Shown here piece after piece: positions 1,288-50,968 of a stretch of 64,000 nt of DNA. Both the position numbers and the translations under genes were made by a program. The stretch's first letter is position 1; each line of letters begins with the position of its first letter. A model generated the notes under the pieces. It worked only from the letters and a program-made list of their open reading frames with translations. It did no database searches and was not told where the DNA came from. The DNA comes from a candidate division TM6 bacterium GW2011_GWF2_28_16 (GTDB taxonomy: Bacteria > Patescibacteriota > Microgenomatia > UBA1400 > PJMF01): contig CP011212.1 in assembly GCA_001029715.1 (NCBI GenBank), forward strand, positions 131,407-195,406, given 5' to 3'.

Positions 1288-4210
<2,923 letters not shown>

Positions 4211-4366
4211 ATTTATTAGTTTTCACAAAGGTCTTATTGAGTAGGTTAGTAGTGAAAGATTTATCTTTTACTACTAACCTTTATATTTCGATATAAAGCA
4301 GTTAGCTTCACTTATTAGCGAGCAAAATCGCTAATTAACATAAAATACGTGCATAAAAACGTTTTA

Positions 4367-4485
4367 TTCTGGTCTCTAGAGCGAGGTGGTACCAACTCTT
4401 CCCATCCCGAACAGAGTCTTGAAACGCTTCAGCGCTGACAATAGTTGGGGGTTCTCCCCCTGCAAAGATAGGTCGAGGCCAGAAT
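4367..4485 (+). rRNA. rrf: 5S ribosomal RNA
   Basis: ttctggtctctagagcgaggtggtaccaactcttcccatcccgaacagagt...ctgcaaagataggtcgaggccagaa. A terminal helix (ttctggtc/ggccagaa) and the conserved cccatcccgaac loop motif are present. It lies about 155 nt downstream of the 23S. Confidence 0.85.
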
Positions 4486-26799: not shown

Positions 26800-28590
26800 T
26801 TAGATTTCTACTTCATAAATCACTGAGCCACTCACGGCGTAGATTTTTGTGCCATCTTCGTTAAAAGCGATACTGCTCACTCCAGCCAATTCATTACTTT
26901 TAATTTCGCTGATTAATTGACCATCTTTGGTGAGAATTAATAATCTTTTGTTTTGTTTTTCTAAGATTGCCAAAGAATTAATTTGGTCATTAGCGCTGAG
27001 AATAATTTGGTTATTTGGCAAATTTTCTAAGCCTTTGATGGAAAATTCAGCAGTTGAGCCTTTAGTGAATTTAAGCAAATTGCCACTTTTAAAAGCCATC
27101 CACAAATCTCCATCTACTATTAGGTCGCTAACATTTTCAAAATTAATACCTTGTTTGTCAACCAACCAACCAATTGGCTCGCTCAATTCTTCATCTTTGT
27201 AATAGTAGCGATAAATGTTTCTTTTTTCTTTATTTAATAAGTATAGGTATGGGCCAAAACTAGACAAAAACTCGCCAGTTTTATCTGATTCGCCCTCTGC
27301 TTTTATTTCTCTGAAGCCACTCTCGGGTTTTGCCAAATCAAGAATTTTGATGCCATTACTTAGAACAAATAAATTGCCTTCACTAACAGTAAAATCTCTA
27401 ATTAGATCTGAGCCTTCTACTTTAATTCTCGATTGAGAATCGTCAGTTTTGATATGTAAAATTTCTTGACTATTATTTTCTAGGGCAAAAATTTCGCCAT
27501 TTTTGAATTCAATTTTGTTGGCTAAAAAATCATTTAAGTTGTAAGCAACGGAGAGTTGATCTAGAGAATTTTCTCCAGAAATTCTTTCAATTAATTGATT
27601 CAAGCGTTCAATTTCTGCATCAATTAGTTTAAGACTGTCTTTGTTATTTTTTTCTTGTTTTAGATTTTCCACCGCCTGTAAACTTTTTTGGGCATTCTCT
27701 CTAGCACTGATGGGTTGTTCAAGAAGCAATTGTTCAATATCATTTGTATTGCGACTAATTTCTGTGATTTGTTTTTCTATATTAGTGACAATTTTTTGAT
27801 TTTGATTTCTGCTAACCGTTGCCGTGGTGAAAATAATGGCAACAGCTCCACAAATTACAAGAAATGTAATTAGTAATTTCTTTTTATCTTGTTTTTTTAA
27901 TATGTAAATAATTTTATTTGAAAATTTTAGAATTTTTTTTAGAAAAACTGGAATTTTTTTAAGTAAATATTTTAATTGCCAAATCTTTAAAACAACTTTC
28001 TTGAAATCAAATTTTTCTTTTGCTACTTCGTCTTCTTGTTCAATGTAAGTTAAGAAAGCCAAGCTTGTTTCAAGATTGCCATTTTCTCCTTGTAAGAGAG
28101 TGCTGTCACTAATTAATTTTTCTAGACTGACTCCTTTTTCAAGCATTTCCATGACGAAGCTACTAATTAGACTTGAAGATTTGTTTATCAAGATAATTTG
28201 GTCATTTCCTTTGAAATTACCGGTCACAATCTTGACTTCTTTGTTGCTGGCTAGAATTTTTCTAGCTTGGTCATTTCTTTTAAGAATAACCTCTCCAGAA
28301 TAAGTGGCGAAAATTATGCCCTCTGTTTTTAATAGACTGAGAGAAAATTCTAAATCAAGTTTTTGTTCTCTGACAAAACTAAGTAAGTCTAGAATTTTTT
28401 GGTGGAGTTGTTCTGGATTTTCGATTTGCCAAGTTAAAAATTCAGCTGTTAGATCTTTGCAGAAGCCAGTCGCGTCTTGACCCTTAAGAGAGAAAGCGAT
28501 ACATAGCTGTTTATTTTGACTTGAAACGACTTCGCTACAGAAGTCTAAGCGAGGATGAGCTAAGATTGATACAAATTGAGCCTCTTTCAC
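26800..28590 (-). CDS. Hypothetical bitopic membrane protein. It has a cytoplasmic N-domain, a TM, an extracellular coiled-coil and a beta-propeller-like C-terminus.
   Basis: 596 aa. It has a single TM near residue 230 (LLITFLVICGAVAIIFTTATV). The downstream region is rich in heptads. The C-terminal 250 aa are beta-rich with repeated hydrophobic/Gly/Asp patterns. No catalytic motif was recognised. Confidence 0.55.
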   Translation of the reverse strand: MKEAQFVSILAHPRLDFCSEVVSSQNKQLCIAFSLKGQDATGFCKDLTAEFLTWQIENPEQLHQKILDLLSFVREQKLDLEFSLSLLKTEGIIFATYSGEVILKRNDQARKILASNKEVKIVTGNFKGNDQIILINKSSSLISSFVMEMLEKGVSLEKLISDSTLLQGENGNLETSLAFLTYIEQEDEVAKEKFDFKKVVLKIWQLKYLLKKIPVFLKKILKFSNKIIYILKKQDKKKLLITFLVICGAVAIIFTTATVSRNQNQKIVTNIEKQITEISRNTNDIEQLLLEQPISARENAQKSLQAVENLKQEKNNKDSLKLIDAEIERLNQLIERISGENSLDQLSVAYNLNDFLANKIEFKNGEIFALENNSQEILHIKTDDSQSRIKVEGSDLIRDFTVSEGNLFVLSNGIKILDLAKPESGFREIKAEGESDKTGEFLSSFGPYLYLLNKEKRNIYRYYYKDEELSEPIGWLVDKQGINFENVSDLIVDGDLWMAFKSGNLLKFTKGSTAEFSIKGLENLPNNQIILSANDQINSLAILEKQNKRLLILTKDGQLISEIKSNELAGVSSIAFNEDGTKIYAVSGSVIYEVEI

Positions 28591-33506: not shown

Positions 33507-33529
33507 ATCTTTTTCACTTGGAAAAAAAG

Positions 33530-33603
33530 TAGCGGGACTGAGATTCGGACTCAGGACCTTGGGTTTATGAATCCCACGCTCTAACCAGCTGAGCTATCCC
33601 GCC
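33530..33603 (-). tRNA. tRNA with anticodon CAU (elongator Met or lysidine-modified Ile2)
   Basis: The reverse complement reads GGCGGGA-TA-GCTC-AGCTGGTTA-GAGC-G-TGGGA-TTCATAA-ACCCA-AGGTC-CTGAG-TCCGAAT-CTCAG-TCCCGCT-A. This is a full cloverleaf with anticodon CAT. There is no C1:A72 mismatch, so it is not the initiator. Confidence 0.8.
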
Positions 33604-33640
33604 ATTTTATTTGAGACTGGTGTATTTTAGCGCAGCTTGC

Positions 33641-33669
33641 TTGATAATACCAGATTCTTTTGTTACAAT
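33641..33669 (+). promoter_or_regulatory. Putative sigma70-type promoter for the initiator tRNA
   Basis: A -35 TTGATA lies at 33641-33646. After a 17-bp spacer, an extended -10, TGtTACAAT, lies at 33661-33669. The tRNA 5' end is about 15 nt downstream. Confidence 0.45.
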
Positions 33670-33683
33670 AACTGCCTAACATA

Positions 33684-33752
33684 CGCGGGATAGTGTACGG
33701 TGCACGTGGGGCTCATAATCCCACAGGCTAGGTTCGACTCCTAGTTCCGCAA
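33684..33752 (+). tRNA. Initiator tRNA-fMet (anticodon CAU). It is compact, with a short D-arm and a 4-nt variable loop.
   Basis: The 5' end is CGCGGGA and the 3' end is TTCCGCA-A, giving the C1:A72 mismatch and A73 typical of bacterial initiator tRNA. The anticodon arm TGGGG-CTCATAA-TCCCA has a loop identical to E. coli tRNAfMet (CUCAUAA) and G:C pairs in the stem. The T-arm is ctagg-ttcgact-cctag. It is 69 nt because of the reduced D-loop. Confidence 0.7.
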
Positions 33753-43075: not shown

Positions 43076-44496
43076 TTTTTAATTAGTCTAACTTTAGCCA
43101 CCTCATTGGCAGGCATAAGGATTTCTACTCTTAAAGCGGCAGCATCAGTAGCAACCTCTTGGTTTTGTTTGGATCCGCTAAGGAATTCTTTATTTAAAGT
43201 GTAATTTCCTGGTTCAATATTGATAAAAGTAATGGGCACTGTTTCACTGTGTGAGCCCTTTGGATCGAAATTGGCGATGACCATTTCAGTTTCGTTGTTA
43301 TCATTTTTAGCAGCTAAAGCTTTGACCCAAGAGCCCAATCCAGTAATTTGTAGGCGTTGATCGGCGATGCTGTCTAGCATTTTTAAAGCTCGATAACGTG
43401 GTTTGCTATTAGCGCCAAAGTCATTATGAGTGAATAAGCCCCAGCGTCCCCAGTAATTTTTGCCTTCAGGATCTTTGCCATCTTGAATTTCAAAAGCAAA
43501 GGCTCGTTCGACACGATTGCTCATGGAAATAGCGGCAGCAACAGTGTGAGCTGCGCCATATTTTGAATCGTATCCAGCATTATTATTACTATCATGACCC
43601 CATTCGGTGATTTGGAATTCAAGAGTTGGCTCTAGTTTTGGATATTTTTGAACCCAAGTTTTTGCCAATTGCATGTCTTCGGCATATTGATTTAGATCAT
43701 TGGTATATCGATGCCAAGAAAAGAAGTCACAGCGCCAATCGTTTTCGCTGCAACCTTTAGCCCAAGCATTAAACCAGTTCTCATAGAGAGCTGTGATGGC
43801 TGGACCACCGAGCTTGAATGGTAAAGCCCCGCGAGCATTTTTTGCACCTGCACTGGCGTAGGCGTAAAGAGTTAGATAATTTTTATCGCCGTAATATTTA
43901 AAAGAGCCAAAAAGATCTGGTTCATTCCAAACTTCATAATAAACATCACGAATACCCTTAGTGCCACTAACGTGTTCAATGGTTTTTTGTACTACCAATT
44001 GCCAATCAGCCCAATTAACTGGATAAGCCAAAATATCTCCAGAAGAAATCGCTGGAGGCATATAAGTTAAGGCAAGATATGGCTTAGCACCAGTTTTATT
44101 GATGTCATCCAAAATCAAGTCAAACTTAGTCCAATCAAAACTAACATTGCCAGGACTGCCCTGAACAATGTCATAAAAATCATAAATATGATCTAAGCGA
44201 ATATATTCTGGTTTGAGAGCGGCAATTTGACCAACTAAATTATCAATGCGCCAGGCGTGATCTTCGCCACCCTGTGCAAGATTGCGCCAAGGCCGTGGCA
44301 TTGGTCCAAGAACAGCTTTAGTATCAACAGTTAAATTAGCTGGAACACCATTAGCTTGACCGAAGAACTGCCTGACAACTTTAATTTGCCAAGCTCCAGC
44401 CATGATTCCTCCAATTAAAATTAGCAAGCCAAGAAAAGAAAAGAAAATTTTTCTTTTTCTCTTTAGCCTTGGATTTATTGGGTAGTTTTGTTTCAC
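43072..44496 (-). CDS. Membrane-anchored glycoside hydrolase, clan GH-A (GH5/GH39-like (beta/alpha)8 barrel)
   Basis: It has an N-terminal TM. The acid/base motif YYEVWNEPD and the nucleophile motif QITEWG are spaced as in GH-A enzymes. It is 474 aa. Confidence 0.6.
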   Translation of the reverse strand: MKQNYPINPRLKRKRKIFFSFLGLLILIGGIMAGAWQIKVVRQFFGQANGVPANLTVDTKAVLGPMPRPWRNLAQGGEDHAWRIDNLVGQIAALKPEYIRLDHIYDFYDIVQGSPGNVSFDWTKFDLILDDINKTGAKPYLALTYMPPAISSGDILAYPVNWADWQLVVQKTIEHVSGTKGIRDVYYEVWNEPDLFGSFKYYGDKNYLTLYAYASAGAKNARGALPFKLGGPAITALYENWFNAWAKGCSENDWRCDFFSWHRYTNDLNQYAEDMQLAKTWVQKYPKLEPTLEFQITEWGHDSNNNAGYDSKYGAAHTVAAAISMSNRVERAFAFEIQDGKDPEGKNYWGRWGLFTHNDFGANSKPRYRALKMLDSIADQRLQITGLGSWVKALAAKNDNNETEMVIANFDPKGSHSETVPITFINIEPGNYTLNKEFLSGSKQNQEVATDAAALRVEILMPANEVAKVRLIKN

Positions 44497-44668
44497 TCCA
44501 ATACTAATGTTAGCAAAAAAGCAGGGGCTTGTCTTATTTGCTTTGTCTATTTATAATCAACACCAGAGTCGAGATTTAGTATCTTAAATAGATTTGTGGG
44601 GAAATAAAAATAAGAATTATATTTTTTTCTTATTTTTCCACAAATTTAAATATAAGAAAGAATATGAA

Positions 44669-45541
44669 ATGAGCAATCAAAGCTTACATGTTTCTATTTC
44701 TGCTGAACCAATCTTCCGTATTTTTGGATTAGAAATTAGCAACTCGATTTTTACCAGTTTGATAGTTAGTTTTCTATTAATTGTTTTTGCAATTTTTTTC
44801 AGATCTAAGTTTAAGAATACAGACAAACCAAGTTCCCTGCAAAATTTTGTCGAAATGATTGCAGAGGCTCTATATAATTTTGTTTATTCCATTACTGAGA
44901 ATACCAAGAAGACTCTTCTATTTTTCCCAGTTATCTCAACTTTTTTTATTTTCATTATTTTAAATAATTACATTGGACTATTGCCTGGAGTTGGATCGAT
45001 TTTGACTAAAGAGGCAGAGGCTCAGACTGAAATAACTCAAGTTGCTTCAGATCAAGAAATATTGGAAGCAGTAGCGGAAGAGGAAGAGATTGTTGAGTCA
45101 GCTGTTCATGGTGAACCCATCCATGCCAAAATGGTTCCAGTTTTTAGAGCTGCCACTGCAGATTTGAATACCACTTTAGCTTTAGCGATTGTTTCAGTGA
45201 TGTTGACTCAAATCTTTGGTATTTCTCATCTTGGTTTTTCTTACTTTAAAAAATTTATTGATTTTTCCAATCCGGTTAATTTTTTTGTAGGTATTTTAGA
45301 AACGGTGTTGGAGTTTGCCAAAATTGTTTCTTTTGCTTTTAGATTATTTGGTAATATTTTTGCAGGTGAAGTTCTACTAGTAGTAATGACTTATTTAATT
45401 TCCATTGCTGTGCCAGCTCCGTTCTATGCACTAGAACTTTTTGTTGGCTTTATTCAGGCTTTAGTTTTTTCAATGTTATCTTTGATTTTCTTCAATTTGG
45501 CTACCAAAGGCCATCATGAAGAAGACCATGTAGTAGCATGA
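44669..45541 (+). CDS. atpB: F-type ATP synthase subunit a (with a long hydrophilic insertion)
   Basis: The C-terminal FRLFGNIFAGEVLL motif carries the essential Arg. It is polytopic. Start chosen at ATG 44669 (MSNQSL...), in frame with the ORF track. Confidence 0.85.
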   Translation: MSNQSLHVSISAEPIFRIFGLEISNSIFTSLIVSFLLIVFAIFFRSKFKNTDKPSSLQNFVEMIAEALYNFVYSITENTKKTLLFFPVISTFFIFIILNNYIGLLPGVGSILTKEAEAQTEITQVASDQEILEAVAEEEEIVESAVHGEPIHAKMVPVFRAATADLNTTLALAIVSVMLTQIFGISHLGFSYFKKFIDFSNPVNFFVGILETVLEFAKIVSFAFRLFGNIFAGEVLLVVMTYLISIAVPAPFYALELFVGFIQALVFSMLSLIFFNLATKGHHEEDHVVA

Positions 45542-45595: not shown

Positions 45596-45808
45596 ATGCA
45601 AGATTTAGCAATAGGTTTAACCATGGGACTGGGAGCACTTGGACCTGCCATTAGTATTGGAATGTTGGTTTCCAAAGCTTTGGAATCAATTGGTCGCAAT
45701 CCAGAGGCTAGTAATAAAATCCAGACAAGCATGATTCTTGGTATGGCTTTTGCTGAAGCAATCGCTATATATGCTTTAGTCGTAGCTTTGATTATTAAGT
45801 TTGTCTAA
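45596..45808 (+). CDS. atpE: F-type ATP synthase subunit c
   Basis: 70 aa. It is a hairpin of two TM helices with the GLGALGPAISIG Gly motif and a conserved carboxylate in helix 2 (AFAEAIAIYALV). Confidence 0.9.
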   Translation: MQDLAIGLTMGLGALGPAISIGMLVSKALESIGRNPEASNKIQTSMILGMAFAEAIAIYALVVALIIKFV

Positions 45809-45819
45809 GGTTAAATAAC

Positions 45820-46305
45820 ATGGATATACAACTAAACCAAATTATTTTTCAAATGATTAATTTTGGCGTAGTACTTGGTGTCTTGACGTATTTCATCTAT
45901 AAACCAGTTCTTAAATTGCTCAATGATCGTCGCGAGCGAGTGGCCGCCGCCGCCGCTACTGCTGCAGAAATGATGCAAGAAAAAGAAAAATTAGAGAGTC
46001 GACACGAAAGTATTTTGCTCAAAGCTAGTCAGGAAGCCAAAAAAATAGAAGATGAAGCGAGAAAAGAATCTCGTGAACAAGCCAAACTTGCTTTGGAACA
46101 AAGCAAGCAAGAAATTGTTGCTCGCGAAGCTAAATTCTCAAGTGAGCTTGCCAAAATGAAGAAGCAAGAAATTGCTTCCATGCAAGATGAAATCAAAAAA
46201 GCAGCTCTTCTAATGGCAGAAAAAGTGCTCAACGAATCAATTGATGCAAAAAAGCATCAAAAATTGCTTGATGAGCAAATTACTAAGATTATCGAAAAAC
46301 TTTAA
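45820..46305 (+). CDS. atpF: F-type ATP synthase subunit b
   Basis: 161 aa. It has an N-terminal TM followed by a long charged helix (KLLNDRRERVAAA...EAKKIEDEARKE...). Confidence 0.85.
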   Translation: MDIQLNQIIFQMINFGVVLGVLTYFIYKPVLKLLNDRRERVAAAAATAAEMMQEKEKLESRHESILLKASQEAKKIEDEARKESREQAKLALEQSKQEIVAREAKFSSELAKMKKQEIASMQDEIKKAALLMAEKVLNESIDAKKHQKLLDEQITKIIEKL

Positions 46306-46311
46306 GTTATT

Positions 46312-46698
46312 ATGTTAAAGATTACTGTTGCCAGTGCAACTCCTTTGAATAGTACGCAAAAGAAAGAGCTTGAGCTATCTGTTGCCAAAAAATACGAAGG
46401 AGAAGAATTAGTTTTTAATTATCAAGTCAAAGCAGACCTTATTGCTGGTTTGAGTGTTAGCGTAGGACGGGTTGAAGATAAAAGGCTTAAAGTTGATATT
46501 CTAAGCGCCATCGCTTTAAACGCGACTCAACAGAAAAAAATCGAGCAAGCCATTGCCAAAAAATACGAAGGAGAAGAATTAGTTTTTAATTATCAAGTCA
46601 AAGCAGACCTTATTGCTGGTTTGAGTGTTAGCGTAGATAGCAAGCTCTATGATGCTAGCTTGCGCGCTCGCCTAGATCAGTTAATCAAACAAATGTAA
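46312..46698 (+). CDS. atpH: F-type ATP synthase delta subunit, truncated (128 aa) and internally duplicated
   Basis: Its position between b and alpha fits delta. The C-terminal motifs VKADLIAGLSVSV and DASLRARLDQL resemble the delta C-terminal domain (VDPSLIGG..DGSV...L..L). A 78-bp nucleotide-perfect tandem duplication lies at 46381-46458 and 46558-46635, and the encoded segment AKKYEGEELVFNYQVKADLIAGLSVSV appears twice. Confidence 0.7.
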   Translation: MLKITVASATPLNSTQKKELELSVAKKYEGEELVFNYQVKADLIAGLSVSVGRVEDKRLKVDILSAIALNATQQKKIEQAIAKKYEGEELVFNYQVKADLIAGLSVSVDSKLYDASLRARLDQLIKQM

Positions 46699-46701
46699 AT
46701 T

Positions 46702-48219
46702 ATGCCAAAATCAGATATTTTCGCCAACCTCTATTCAATTAAAGAAGCTGATCTCAAAGTCAGCCAGTCTTCCGTGGGTAAAGTAATTTCTTATGCTGAT
46801 GGCATTGTTTTTACTGACCAGCTTGAAGATGTGCAATCAGGTGAACTAGTAACTTTTGGTGAGAATGCTTATGGTTTGGCACTTAACTTAGAAAAAGAAA
46901 AGGTAGGTATCATTGTTTTGTCCGGTGGCGAGCAAATTAGGCCTGGAGATCTAGTCCATCGTACGGGTAAAATTTTATCCATCAACGTTTCCGAAGATAT
47001 CATTGGTAGAGTCATCGATGCGATGGGTAATGCTATCGATGGTAAGGCGGACATTGCTCGTGGCAAAGACATGTTTTTGGAAAAAATCGCTCCAGGCGTG
47101 ATCGCTCGTGAGGCAGTTAATCAGCCAATGCAGACAGGTATCAAAGCCGTTGATGCTTTGATTCCTATCGGTCGTGGTCAGCGCGAGCTGATCATTGGTG
47201 ATCGCAACACAGGCAAATCTTCCGTTGCACTAGGCAGCATTTTGAACCAAAAGGGTCAGGATATGATTTGTGTCTATGTTTCTATTGGTCAGAAGAAATC
47301 AACTTTAGCTCAATTCATCCAAGTTTTAGAGGATAAGGGTGCGATGGAGTATACGATTGTCGTTGCCGCTTCAGCTTCCGACGCAGCTTCTCTGCAGTTT
47401 TTAGCTCCTTATGCTGGCCAAGCAGTTGCAGAGTACTTTTTGGATAAAGGTAAGGATGTGCTCATTGTTTTCGATGACTTAAGTAAACATGCTCAAGCAT
47501 ATCGTGAAATTTCTCTATTACTCAAGCGCCCTTCAGGCCGTGAAGCTTATCCAGGTGATGTTTTTTACTTACACTCTCGTCTTTTAGAGCGATCTTGTAA
47601 ACTCAATCAAGAACATGGGGGTGGCTCCATCACTGCTCTCCCTATCATTGAAACCCAAGCCAATGACGTCTCAGCATATATTCCTACCAACGTTATTTCC
47701 ATCACTGATGGTCAGATTTATTTAGAAACTGATCTTTTTAATTCAGGTGTTAGACCTGCCATTAACGTCGGTCTTTCGGTTTCTCGTGTCGGTTCAGCCG
47801 CCCAGGTAAAAGCCATGAAACAAGTAGCTGGTAGTTTGAAACTTGATCTTGCTCAATTCAGAGAACTTGAAGCTTTTGCTCAATTCAGTTCAGATCTTGA
47901 TGCAACCACCAAGAAACAACTTGAAAGAGGCAAAAGAGTCAGTGAAATTCTCAAGCAAGCTTGGGATTTACAAATGTCAGTTGCCGATCAGGTTTTGATG
48001 ATTTATGCGGCAGTTAATGGTTTCTTGGACGAAATCGAAATTACTCAGCTGACTGAATGGGAGCAGAGTTATTTGAACTTCGCCAAGAGCAAACATGCCA
48101 AACTAGTTAGTACCTTATCGACTGGACCAAAAATTGAAAAACAAGAGGCAGAAGCTTTGCAAAAGCTGGTCAAAGATTTTGCAAAATCCTATCCTCATTT
48201 TTATAAGAAAGAGTCTTAA
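46702..48219 (+). CDS. atpA: F-type ATP synthase alpha subunit
   Basis: It has GDRNTGKSSVA (P-loop) and the family-wide conserved blocks. It is 505 aa. Confidence 0.97.
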   Translation: MPKSDIFANLYSIKEADLKVSQSSVGKVISYADGIVFTDQLEDVQSGELVTFGENAYGLALNLEKEKVGIIVLSGGEQIRPGDLVHRTGKILSINVSEDIIGRVIDAMGNAIDGKADIARGKDMFLEKIAPGVIAREAVNQPMQTGIKAVDALIPIGRGQRELIIGDRNTGKSSVALGSILNQKGQDMICVYVSIGQKKSTLAQFIQVLEDKGAMEYTIVVAASASDAASLQFLAPYAGQAVAEYFLDKGKDVLIVFDDLSKHAQAYREISLLLKRPSGREAYPGDVFYLHSRLLERSCKLNQEHGGGSITALPIIETQANDVSAYIPTNVISITDGQIYLETDLFNSGVRPAINVGLSVSRVGSAAQVKAMKQVAGSLKLDLAQFRELEAFAQFSSDLDATTKKQLERGKRVSEILKQAWDLQMSVADQVLMIYAAVNGFLDEIEITQLTEWEQSYLNFAKSKHAKLVSTLSTGPKIEKQEAEALQKLVKDFAKSYPHFYKKES

Positions 48220-48224
48220 GCTGT

Positions 48225-50545
<2,321 letters not shown>

Positions 50546-50551
50546 ACAGTT

Positions 50552-50968
50552 ATGAGTAACAAATTGAGACTTATCATCGTTTCTCAGGAAGAGCAACTGC
50601 TCGATCAGGAAGTCGATTCGGTTTCCCTACTGACTCAAAATGGCGTGATTACTATTCTCAAGGATCATCAACCCCTTATTAGTAAGCTGGAGTTTGGTGA
50701 ATTGGAATACCAAGTTGGTAATCAACGCCATAACATACTTTTGACTCAGGGTTTTGTTAACAAAAAACCAAACAACCAAGTTTTAGTCGTAGTAGACTCC
50801 GCTTTTAGTGCTCGAGAGTTGAATAATGAAAAGATCAAGGTAGCTGTAGCCAAAGCAAAAGAAGCCTTCAAGATCACAAAAGACAAGCGTGAGCTGTTGA
50901 TGATCGAAAGTTCTCTCAAACAACTTTTCTGGGAATTACAGTTGGCGAATAAGAAAAAGAAGAGCTAA
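50552..50968 (+). CDS. atpC: F-type ATP synthase epsilon subunit
   Basis: 138 aa. It is the last gene of the operon, with a beta-sandwich N-terminus and a helical C-terminus. Confidence 0.8.
   Translation: MSNKLRLIIVSQEEQLLDQEVDSVSLLTQNGVITILKDHQPLISKLEFGELEYQVGNQRHNILLTQGFVNKKPNNQVLVVVDSAFSARELNNEKIKVAVAKAKEAFKITKDKRELLMIESSLKQLFWELQLANKKKKS

Follow-up and report, generated by a model that had tools for sequence, protein, structure and literature searches.

The atpH gene of this genome encodes a delta subunit of F-type ATP synthase that is made of one partial and one complete C-terminal module and has no N-terminal domain. The missing N-terminal domain is the norm of the lineage, because all 48 related Pacebacteria clusters encode a delta of about 71 aa that contains the C-terminal domain only. 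The internal duplication, by which the subunit reaches 128 aa, is real and present in two strains of a single species, the only one to carry it among 49 clusters. These features probably arose from a 71-aa ancestor that already lacked the N-terminal cap, through an old in-frame tandem duplication and a later conversion of the core of the repeat in this species.

Operon context and domain content of the delta subunit

In the window, that is, the whole 64-kb stretch of DNA that was analysed, the ATP synthase genes follow the order atpB-E-F-H-A-G-D-C on the + strand, with atpH in its canonical position between atpF and atpA. The features, with the evidence for each, are as follows.

44594 to 45541, + strand: atpB, a subunit (Pfam ATP-synt_A, E = 3e-40; gene calls)
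45596 to 45808, + strand: atpE, c subunit, 70 aa (Pfam ATP-synt_C, E = 1e-19)
45820 to 46305, + strand: atpF, b subunit, 161 aa (Pfam ATP-synt_B over residues 8-137; open reading frame list)
46312 to 46698, + strand: atpH, delta subunit, 128 aa (open reading frame; Pfam OSCP; TIGR01145; local C-terminal-domain HMM)
46702 to 48219, + strand: atpA, alpha subunit, 505 aa (Pfam; comparison of N-termini)
48225 to 49130, + strand: atpG (Pfam; open reading frame list)
49145 to 50545, + strand: atpD (open reading frame list; precomputed Pfam on gene calls)
50552 to 50968, + strand: atpC (Pfam; open reading frame list)

The 128-aa reading frame given for atpH in a first-pass annotation of this DNA is confirmed. 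An upstream extension of the gene is impossible because only 6 nt separate the end of atpF from the atpH start codon, and the atpF stop codon (46303-46305) is in frame with atpH; relatives are equally compact, and a frameshift or a mis-called start was ruled out. Downstream, the atpH stop codon (46696-46698) precedes an ATG at 46702 that belongs to atpA itself, so the delta C-terminal domain and alpha are not translationally fused. The atpF product is of normal length and carries no delta-like extension, and the comparison of N-termini indicates that alpha retains a segment of about 24 residues ahead of its beta-barrel. The atpB reading frame starts with TTG at 44594 (290-293 aa in the gene calls of other assemblies). 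An acidic loop of about 40 aa is inserted in atpB at 45005-45133.

In canonical enzymes, the two domains of delta have distinct roles. The N-terminal helical domain (about 100 aa) caps the alpha3beta3 crown and binds the N-termini of alpha, and the C-terminal domain, which consists of a sheet of four strands and two helices, fastens the b-dimer C-termini to the N-terminal helix of alpha. The Pfam OSCP profile (PF00213) matches the atpH product at 89.6 bits (cut-off 22.3; E = 3e-25) in two stretches, the better of which aligns residues 56-128 with profile positions 100-172 of 172. TIGR01145 (NCBIfam) scores 77.8 bits against a cut-off of 57.5, likewise at C-terminal positions (about 100-172); with this model, the score of the 71-aa relative by itself is 49.8 bits, which is under the cut-off. 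Because the OSCP matches sit at profile positions 100-172, both units represent the delta C-terminal domain and the N-terminal domain is absent. Profile positions 1-99 are unmatched by the 128-aa delta in both PF00213 and TIGR01145, and a local C-terminal-domain HMM resolves two domains in it, at residues 1-56 and 59-128.

An HMM of the delta N-terminal domain detected nothing in the six frames of the window, which covers 64 kb of a genome of about 850 kb; the best E was 0.17, whereas positive controls reached 1e-19 to 1e-23. A separate gene for the N-terminal domain close by, or its fusion to b or alpha, was rejected for the window, where b (161 aa) and alpha (505 aa) have normal domains. A profile of the 71-aa family finds solved delta/OSCP chains at their C-terminal domains (E values down to 2e-12), and an AlphaFold2 model of the 71-aa form, predicted with moderate confidence (pLDDT 69), has a beta-alpha-beta-beta-(beta)-alpha topology. 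In a Foldseek search, the top 32 PDB matches of this model are all delta/OSCP, with TM scores of 0.53-0.69 normalised to the query. The AlphaFold2 model of the 128-aa protein (pLDDT 62, pTM 0.38) was set aside as evidence of fold; with it, Foldseek gave nothing at E <=1e-3, and the MIF/tautomerase entries at the top of its matches superpose with an rmsd of about 15 Å, which is meaningless.

The internal repeat and the 71-aa relatives

The first-pass annotation had described a perfect tandem repeat of 78 bp within two units of about 59 aa, sharing 26 identical residues. The perfect repeat is real, but its dimensions are different. The maximal exact repeat is 84 nt long, with 46382-46465 equal to 46553-46636 (the ranges first proposed, 46381-46458 and 46558-46635, differ in sequence), and the offset between the copies is 171 nt, or 57 codons. 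Both copies specify the identical 27-residue peptide AKKYEGEELVFNYQVKADLIAGLSVSV, at residues 25-51 and 82-108. No other exact direct repeat of at least 30 nt exists in the 64-kb window; Tandem Repeats Finder did not report the atpH repeat (two copies, 79% identity overall). On either side of the core, the units have diverged, with identities of 56% over 70 nt on the 5' side and 24% over 17 nt on the 3' side, which gives the gene a mosaic structure with the following parts.

46312 to 46381, + strand: N1, 5' segment of unit 1 (residues 1-23 and one further base; beta1 and helix), diverged, 56% nucleotide identity to N2
46382 to 46465, + strand: core copy 1 (84 nt; residues 24-51, beta2-beta3), exact match to 46553-46636
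46466 to 46482, + strand: linker GRVEDK, 24% identity to the start of the tail
46483 to 46552, + strand: N2, 5' segment of unit 2 (residues 58-80 and one further base), diverged, from the alignment of the units
46553 to 46636, + strand: core copy 2 (84 nt; residues 81-108), exact match to core copy 1
46637 to 46698, + strand: tail, DSKLYDASLRARLDQLIKQM (beta4, C-terminal helix and stop codon), single copy, from the alignment to 71-aa relatives and the AlphaFold2 secondary structure

Unit 1 stops at profile position 57 of 71 and continues into GRVEDK, which replaces beta4 and the last helix. In N2, the codon at the position of the start ATG is AGG. The linker agrees with 46295-46311 at 8 of 17 positions, which is not significant (p about 0.05); the idea that it descends, with divergence, from a copied 3' end of atpF together with the stop codon, the spacer and the start codon, TAA having become GAA and ATG having become AGG, is therefore suggestive only.

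The identical 128-aa protein is encoded on 16 contigs, mostly of 0.2-0.85 Mb, under four NCBI accessions. Two loci from separate deposits (L002 and L003), 97.75% identical over 10.4 kb, specify this same protein, and their atpH genes differ at three positions, all synonymous, one of them within a single core copy. A shorter form of 71 aa (P0002) consists of exactly N1, core and tail between flanks that are 100% identical to the window. Such deletion-type, single-copy atpH contigs exist only in fragmented, low-coverage short-read assemblies from the same project, and the form could be either a real deletion or an assembly collapse. Haplotypes do not mark the 71-aa allele as a distinct sub-lineage, given that two of its contigs (L007 and L009) carry two to three unshared changes to T, clustered at 44444-44566 and error-like. 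The flanks of the 71-aa contigs, identical to the window, are what would speak for an assembly artefact, in which a 71-aa gene was lengthened by a false expansion of the repeat or by the merging of two strains. The probability of such an artefact is close to negligible. The 87 nt between the cores (linker and N2) are unique and, because they are in frame and contain no stop or start codon, are not the atpF-atpH junction of another strain. Moreover, the same structure recurs in the separately deposited strain, which is 2.3% diverged and has its own synonymous SNPs inside the repeat unit, and the large contigs that carry the 128-aa form span four accessions.

Comparison with related genomes places the compact gene in context. 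In the 48 related clusters, the product is exactly 71 aa long in 47 and 70 aa long in one; across the 22 other matches and these clusters, the exceptions to 70-71 aa are one 83-aa entry and one 101-aa contig fragment. The atpH gene lies between atpF and atpA in those relatives that were examined, and in two of them (L010 and L019) the 71-aa gene is flanked by a 161-aa b and a 505-aa alpha, with no delta-alpha fusion. The sampled relatives stand at 97.7% nucleotide identity and then at about 80% alpha-subunit identity, with none between. A delta of normal length is encoded in none of them, nor is the present gene a frameshifted version of one. The earlier description of atpH as truncated, with its implication of a defect in this genome, therefore does not hold, since the N-terminal domain is missing in all sampled relatives. 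The other possibility raised at that time, a remodelled minimal delta built from the C-terminal module, is genuine and extends across the lineage. The literature search returned nothing on C-terminal-domain-only or tandem delta in candidate-phyla-radiation bacteria.

Age of the duplication and role of the extra module

The two units carry contrasting signals of divergence. Between N1 and N2, synonymous sites are saturated (pS 0.85), with pN 0.32 and dN 0.42, and of 10 conserved residues, 7 are specified by different codons. Because synonymous sites outside the core are saturated, the duplication appears to be old rather than recent, a date that is based on 22 codons only. The core copies, in contrast, show no differences in 84 nt and no synonymous differences over 17.5 synonymous sites. 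Such a core, free of any difference amid diverged units, is best explained by intragenic gene conversion, an event that would be read from the pattern it left. Of the 'recent duplication or gene conversion' first suggested, conversion thus survives as the best account of the perfect tract; the recent date does not, and the same 128-aa protein is found in the strain 2.3% diverged.

A young and transient tandem duplication, that is, a recent slip in an essential operon with neither history nor function, would readily produce 84 perfectly identical nt, a distribution limited to one species among 49 clusters, and an apparent single-copy allele in the same project. It is nevertheless very improbable. 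Elsewhere in the unit, identity is 56% and synonymous sites are saturated, the differences are strongly biased to synonymous positions (Fisher's exact test, p = 2e-4; 0 of 876 stop-free neutral simulations reached the observed values), and the duplication predates the 2.3% strain split.

The divergence of the 5' parts could also reflect a chimeric origin, in which recombination with foreign DNA introduced the linker and N2 from a distant delta homologue, with the resident core serving as the anchor or being copied. N2 is as distant from N1 (56% nucleotide identity) as it is from the N parts of other species (49-59%), and it has ancestral residues that are missing in N1; N1 in turn retains ancestral residues gone from N2. 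However, N1 and N2 have in common the derived residues K3, N13 and T15, which are absent from orthologues, and a donor-like sequence was not found among the 49 clusters or 10 genome loci. The chimera also requires an illegitimate junction that fell in frame by chance, and on balance it is quite improbable.

According to the favoured history of duplication followed by conversion, the N-terminal cap domain would have been lost across the Pacebacteria-type clade, leaving an ancestral gene of 71 aa. A 171-nt in-frame tandem duplication in this species would then have placed a partial module, comprising beta1, helix, beta2 and beta3 and lacking beta4 and the last helix, ahead of a complete one. Both N1 and N2 would have been kept under purifying selection after the duplication, and the 84-nt core would later have been homogenised by intragenic gene conversion, before the two strains split by 2.3%. 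The perfect direct repeat may now allow the 71-aa form to be regained by in-frame deletion.

Because the differences between N1 and N2 are biased to synonymous positions, both parts, and with them the extra module, appear to have been constrained since the duplication, and the extra module is presumably functional. It could still be dispensable, because it has no terminal helix, because a 71-aa delta serves all relatives, and because a variant of that length may coexist. A further reading accepts the duplication as real and old and regards the partial module as a functionless, tolerated N-terminal appendage on the 71-aa module. The lack of beta4 and the last helix in unit 1, the use of a 71-aa delta by all relatives, and the possible coexistence of the deletion variant are what this reading would predict. 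It is unlikely, however, in view of the strong synonymous bias that separates N1, in the partial module, from N2, in the complete one. Further, N1 keeps all seven invariant positions of the N part of the family, N2 keeps the family-invariant S8, L12, Q16 and E21, and the protein is unchanged across the 2.3% strain divergence. An arrangement of a 57-aa partial unit followed by a complete unit has also originated independently in the Christensenellaceae, whose protein has 131 aa and is found on 359 contigs, and in another protein cluster, P0087.

Stalk number and comparison with known delta systems

Delta's N-terminal domain restricts F-type ATP synthases to a single peripheral stalk and a single a-subunit, and altered delta subunits permit two or three stalks together with an increased H+/ATP ratio (PMC12002316, PMC12229609). 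The natural candidates found by those authors are delta-alpha fusions only (PMC12002316, PMC12229609). The locus reveals a delta that is free-standing and reduced to the C-terminal domain across a whole clade of ultra-small bacteria from groundwater; in one species, a second, partial module has been added to it. In our survey, the copy number of the delta C-terminal domain is one, two or three, with or without an N-terminal domain, which puts natural enzymes at hand for testing variation in stalk number and may point to a bioenergetic adaptation of candidate-phyla-radiation bacteria. The locus also offers a clean, small case of what is probably intragenic gene conversion and a deletion-prone perfect repeat in a normally essential gene.

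We infer, rather than observe, how a cap-less delta holds the stalk and what the duplication does to it. A bold proposal, which we consider distinctly unlikely as a whole, is that the cap-less or tandem delta determines stalk number and raises the H+/ATP ratio, with the 84-nt repeat acting as a switch of stator architecture. If this were true, the Pacebacteria F1Fo, with no N-terminal domain on the three-fold axis, could bind the assembly of delta C-terminal domain, b dimer and a subunit on more than one alpha. Tandem forms (the 128-aa protein, the class of about 145 aa, and the 131-aa Christensenellaceae protein) would fix or stabilise two stalks. The higher H+/ATP ratio would suit the synthesis of ATP in ultra-small fermentative cells, where a low proton-motive force is expected, and the 128-aa/71-aa polymorphism would act through the 84-nt repeat as a genetic switch.

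Canonical delta/OSCP proteins (PF00213, TIGR01145; for example, E. coli 6oqr_W and Bacillus PS3 6n2y_I) occupy the same operon slot between atpF and atpA. Their C-terminal domains are homologous to the modules described here, with solved structures matched at 2e-12 to 1e-4, and superpose with the 71-aa model. They differ in having an N-terminal helical domain of about 100 aa, which is absent here, whereas the C-terminal module is present here 1.7 times. A delta without its N-terminal domain has been described in fusion with alpha, both as an engineered Bacillus PS3 protein (PDB 9jc1) and as a natural protein of Acidaminococcus fermentans (Nat Commun 2025, PMC12229609). In that work, the delta C-terminal domain alone, tethered to alpha, binds b2 canonically, and removal of the N-terminal domain lifts the limit of one stalk (PMC12229609). 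The fused delta is likewise a C-terminal domain only, and 9jc1 is a weak sequence match of the 71-aa profile. The delta described here differs in being free-standing and internally duplicated.

The best solved-structure match of the 71-aa family (E = 2e-12) is the two-stalk F1Fo of Chloroflexus aurantiacus (PNAS 2025, PMC12002316; PDB 9itj). This enzyme contains two delta C-terminal domains, each anchoring a b dimer, on two chains joined via a four-helix dimer of delta N-terminal domains (PMC12002316). A tandem delta would likewise present two C-terminal modules held together. It differs from the C. aurantiacus subunit in that its first module is incomplete and in that no N-terminal domain precedes the C-terminal domain in either the 71-aa or the 128-aa form. 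The N-ATPase b subunit, which has a delta-like C-terminus (TIGR03321), represents another natural route to an enzyme without a separate full delta. Positions 178-246 of TIGR03321 are homologous to the 128-aa delta (36.6 bits, far under the cut-off of 224.7), but b here is a normal 161 aa and the operon order is canonical.

Tandem C-terminal domains without an N-terminal domain, a type of protein that has no name in the literature searched, occur in 17 of the 150 best representative clusters, and examples of 145 aa (L024) and 131 aa (L025 and L026, Christensenellaceae) are encoded between atpF and atpA. The Christensenellaceae protein and P0087 have the same order as the protein described here, a 57-aa partial unit followed by a complete one, and a truncated first unit is common only to P0087 and to P0039/P0174 within the tandem class. 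In the other tandem proteins, most of which have two complete units, the repeats have diverged over their full length, in contrast to the nucleotide-perfect core found here. The present duplication is an event independent of these other tandem forms, inside the clade of 71-aa delta subunits.

Domain content of the delta subunit and its lineage context

A canonical atp operon lies on the + strand of the window, with its genes identified from the ORF list and Pfam domains.

Genes of the atp operon (window coordinates, strand, gene, basis of identification)
44594-45541, +, atpB (a subunit); ORF list, Pfam
45596-45808, +, atpE; ORF list, Pfam
45820-46305, +, atpF; ORF list, Pfam
46312-46698, +, atpH (delta); ORF list, Pfam
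46702-48219, +, atpA; ORF list, Pfam
48225-49130, +, atpG; ORF list, Pfam
49145-50545, +, atpD; ORF list, precomputed Pfam domains
50552-50968, +, atpC; ORF list, Pfam

The atpB start is ambiguous (44594-44680): the mechanical ORF from TTG 44594 encodes 315 aa, and other assemblies give 290 or 293 aa. The a subunit contains an acidic loop insertion of ~40 aa (45005-45133; TKEAEAQTEITQVASDQEILEAVAEEEEIVESAVHGEPIHAKM), and those of two homologous loci, L010 and L024, carry an insertion of different sequence at the matching position. Elsewhere in the window, two tRNA-Met (CAT) genes, one of just 69 nt, lie ~80 nt apart on opposite strands (33529-33752).

As the first-pass annotation stated, atpH encodes 128 aa. 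The protein scores 89.6 bits against Pfam OSCP (cut-off 22.3) and 77.8 bits against TIGR01145 (cut-off 57.5), in each case over two stretches confined to profile positions ~100-172. This delta therefore consists of two copies of the C-terminal domain module of delta/OSCP (delta-C), and the N-terminal domain is absent. Unit 1 (residues 1-57) comprises beta1, a helix, beta2 and beta3, followed by the linker GRVEDK, and unit 2 (residues 58-128) is complete, with beta4 and the terminal helix as well. An N-terminal domain could not be concealed in an upstream extension of atpH, because the atpF stop is 6 nt 5' of its ATG. By Pfam, the domain content of b (161 aa) and alpha (505 aa) is ordinary. An HMM of the delta N-terminal domain, made from 53 canonical deltas, found no match in a six-frame scan of the window (best E 0.17; positive controls 1e-19 to 1e-23). 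Its C-terminal domain and operon position place the protein in the delta/OSCP family, whose N-terminal domain it lacks. Identity as an N-ATPase b subunit was rejected (36.6 bits vs a cut-off of 224.7).

The exact 128-aa protein is annotated as the delta of Candidatus Pacebacteria bacterium GW2011_GWF2_38_9, a candidate-phyla-radiation bacterium. All other close-family members, comprising 22 initial hits and the 48 clusters of a later profile search, have a single delta-C module and are 70-71 aa long; the exceptions in length are an entry of 83 aa and a 101-aa fragment on a 561-nt contig. What had been read as truncation of the window's delta is thus typical of the lineage, rather than damage particular to this genome. 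At two relatives' loci, L010 and L019, the 71-aa gene is flanked by a 161-aa b and a 505-aa alpha. The alpha of the 71-aa relatives is 79-82% identical to that of the window, and a wide unsampled gap thus separates them from this species.

The repeat, its reality and a 71-residue allele

The maximal exact repeat in atpH is 84 nt (46382-46465 equals 46553-46636), with an offset of 171 nt, or 57 codons; the ranges originally proposed as identical, 46381-46458 and 46558-46635, mismatch on direct comparison. It is the sole exact direct repeat of at least 30 nt in the 64-kb window. The 57-codon unit is a mosaic, in which identity between units is 56% over the first 70 nt, 100% over the next 84 nt and 24% over the last 17 nt. 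Tandem Repeats Finder reported a single array in the window, an AT-rich 21-nt unit in 3 copies with 71% matches (27910-27974).

Parts of atpH (window coordinates, + strand)
46312-46381, N1
46382-46465, core 1
46466-46482, linker
46483-46552, N2
46553-46636, core 2
46637-46698, tail

The duplication is real. Sixteen contigs, of which ten are 0.2-1 Mb long, encode the 128-aa protein, and it has four NCBI accessions. A diverged strain, represented by L002 and L003 (GCA_018817305.1 and an ENA assembly), shows just 97.75% identity to the window across 10.4 kb (231 mismatches), yet shares the duplicated structure and encodes an identical protein; its three atpH differences (one each in N1, N2 and the first core copy, but none in the second) are all synonymous. 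The splicing of another strain's atpF-atpH junction by an assembler is ruled out, because the 87-nt stretch separating the cores is unique, in frame and free of stop and start codons. Divergence between L002 and the window is uneven by gene (0.8% in atpH and 1.1% in atpG, vs 4.6-4.7% in atpE and hrcA); the low atpH value, based on small counts, is compatible with constraint or recent exchange.

A shorter form occurs in another Pacebacteria bin of the same project, probably GW2011_GWF1_36_5 by the taxonomy list, a name that under the project's naming convention would presumably imply ~5x coverage. Its protein, P0002 (KKQ09129.1), corresponds exactly to N1 + core + tail, the structure that, as read from the sequence, recombination between the two cores would produce. 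Contigs with P0002 are identical to the window on both sides, bar a few unshared changes to T upstream of atpB (44444-44566). Two contigs with the 71-aa form, L007 and L009, have 2-3 such changes, which look like sequencing or assembly errors, and atpA is frameshifted in L007. This allele may be a real variant, since, in several assembly pipelines alike, the 71-aa and 128-aa forms come from different samples, and the final k of MEGAHIT (127 or 141) exceeds the 84-nt repeat. It may instead be an artefact of repeat collapse, as at low coverage small-k collapse can persist into larger k. Every contig with the 71-aa form is <50 kb, and most of those that encode 128 aa span 0.2-0.85 Mb. Given that the duplication is present in the diverged strain too, a genuine 71-aa variant would by parsimony be a derived deletion.

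Age and mechanism of the duplication

Over codons 2-23, N1 and N2 use different codons at 7/10 conserved residues, with a saturated pS of 0.85, a pN of 0.32 and a dN of 0.42. The synonymous excess is significant (Fisher p = 2e-4), and these values were reached by 0/876 neutral simulations (stop-free, with an equal number of changes). N1 and N2 have therefore long been separate, both under purifying selection. The two share derived residues K3, N13 and T15, which are absent from orthologues; N2 keeps ancestral I6, I10, A11 and K19, lost from N1, and N1 keeps I4, A7, K17, L20 and S23. N2 could in principle be an imported segment rather than an in-place duplicate, but besides sharing these derived residues it is no closer in DNA identity to any sampled orthologue (49-59%) than to N1 (56%). 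Residue pattern and DNA distances thus favour an old intragenic duplication.

The cores show 0 differences over 17.5 synonymous sites. This 84-nt identity had been taken as the possible mark of a recent event; the saturated N parts beside it point instead to a gene-conversion footprint, and conversion between the two cores, which would have erased their divergence, is the most economical explanation. The tract boundaries are unchanged in the strain 2.3% diverged, and the conversion is therefore older than the strain split. The 3' tract edge coincides with the end of detectable inter-unit homology. A junction originally at that point would make 46295-46465 the duplicated segment, taking in the atpF stop, the atpH start codon and the spacer between them. 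In that case the linker would be a diverged copy of these elements (TAA to GAA, ATG to AGG), an origin faintly suggested by its 8/17 matches to the presumed source (p ~0.05).

Delta architectures elsewhere and comparison with known systems

The 71-aa family profile was searched against 1.84 billion representative proteins and the 150 best hits were classed with a local HMM; the counts come from a list ranked by query similarity and hence are no census.

Delta architectures among the 150 best hits (clusters)
N-terminal domain + one delta-C (canonical): 62
Single delta-C only, 68-107 aa: 41, and three more with C-terminal extensions, including the delta-C-alpha fusion P0058
One delta-C + short N-terminal extension of 35-79 aa: 15
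Tandem delta-C, no N-terminal domain, 121-186 aa: 17 (P0028-P0165)
N-terminal domain + two delta-C: 6
N-terminal domain + three delta-C, Clostridium, 360-412 aa: 3
Leftover: three, a 253-aa protein (short N-terminal extension, then two delta-C) and 2424-aa and 6096-aa proteins without a clear domain

Tandem delta-C genes occupy the atpH slot, between atpF and atpA, in ordinary operons at three homologous loci. L024 encodes a 145-aa form (4001-4438) and an alpha with 64% identity to that of the window; L025 and L026, from Christensenellaceae, encode a 131-aa form (4001-4396) found on 359 contigs. In the Christensenellaceae protein and another homologue, P0087, a partial unit of 57 aa precedes a complete one, as in the window's delta, and this layout therefore arose more than once. 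Outside the window, P0031 (annotated in Clostridium argentinense and C. faecium), P0037 and P0047 (360-412 aa) carry three delta-C modules behind a normal N-terminal domain. P0058 (337 aa, ending at a contig edge) is a natural delta-C-alpha fusion with a long linker between, of the same kind as the Acidaminococcus delta-alpha fusion noted in PMC12229609.

In canonical enzymes, one alpha N-terminus touches delta-C, which holds b2, and the other two touch the delta N-terminal domain on the pseudo-threefold axis (PMC12229609). The alpha N-terminal helix is retained in these lineages, with its pattern conserved. We infer by analogy that the 71-aa delta would anchor b2 to this helix in an enzyme without an axial cap. 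In the 128-aa form, the additional partial module is under constraint but has no terminal helix; it may make a second crown contact in place of the N-terminal domain, act as a tether to a second stalk or be a tolerated appendage. Single-chain structure models are weak (pLDDT 62 and 69). A search of an incomplete library found no account, for these bacteria, of tandem delta-C deltas or of free-standing ones limited to delta-C. The window's delta makes natural variation in stalk number directly testable.

Two known systems offer comparisons. A Bacillus PS3 enzyme with delta-C fused to alpha binds b2 canonically and forms up to three stalks with three a-subunits (PMC12229609). The 128-aa delta resembles such delta-alpha fusions in lacking the N-terminal domain, but it is unfused. 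The best solved-structure match of the 71-aa family is the delta of Chloroflexus aurantiacus (E = 2e-12), whose enzyme naturally has two stalks, with two delta-C modules paired via a delta-N dimer (PMC12002316); the 128-aa delta is like this arrangement only in presenting two delta-C modules.
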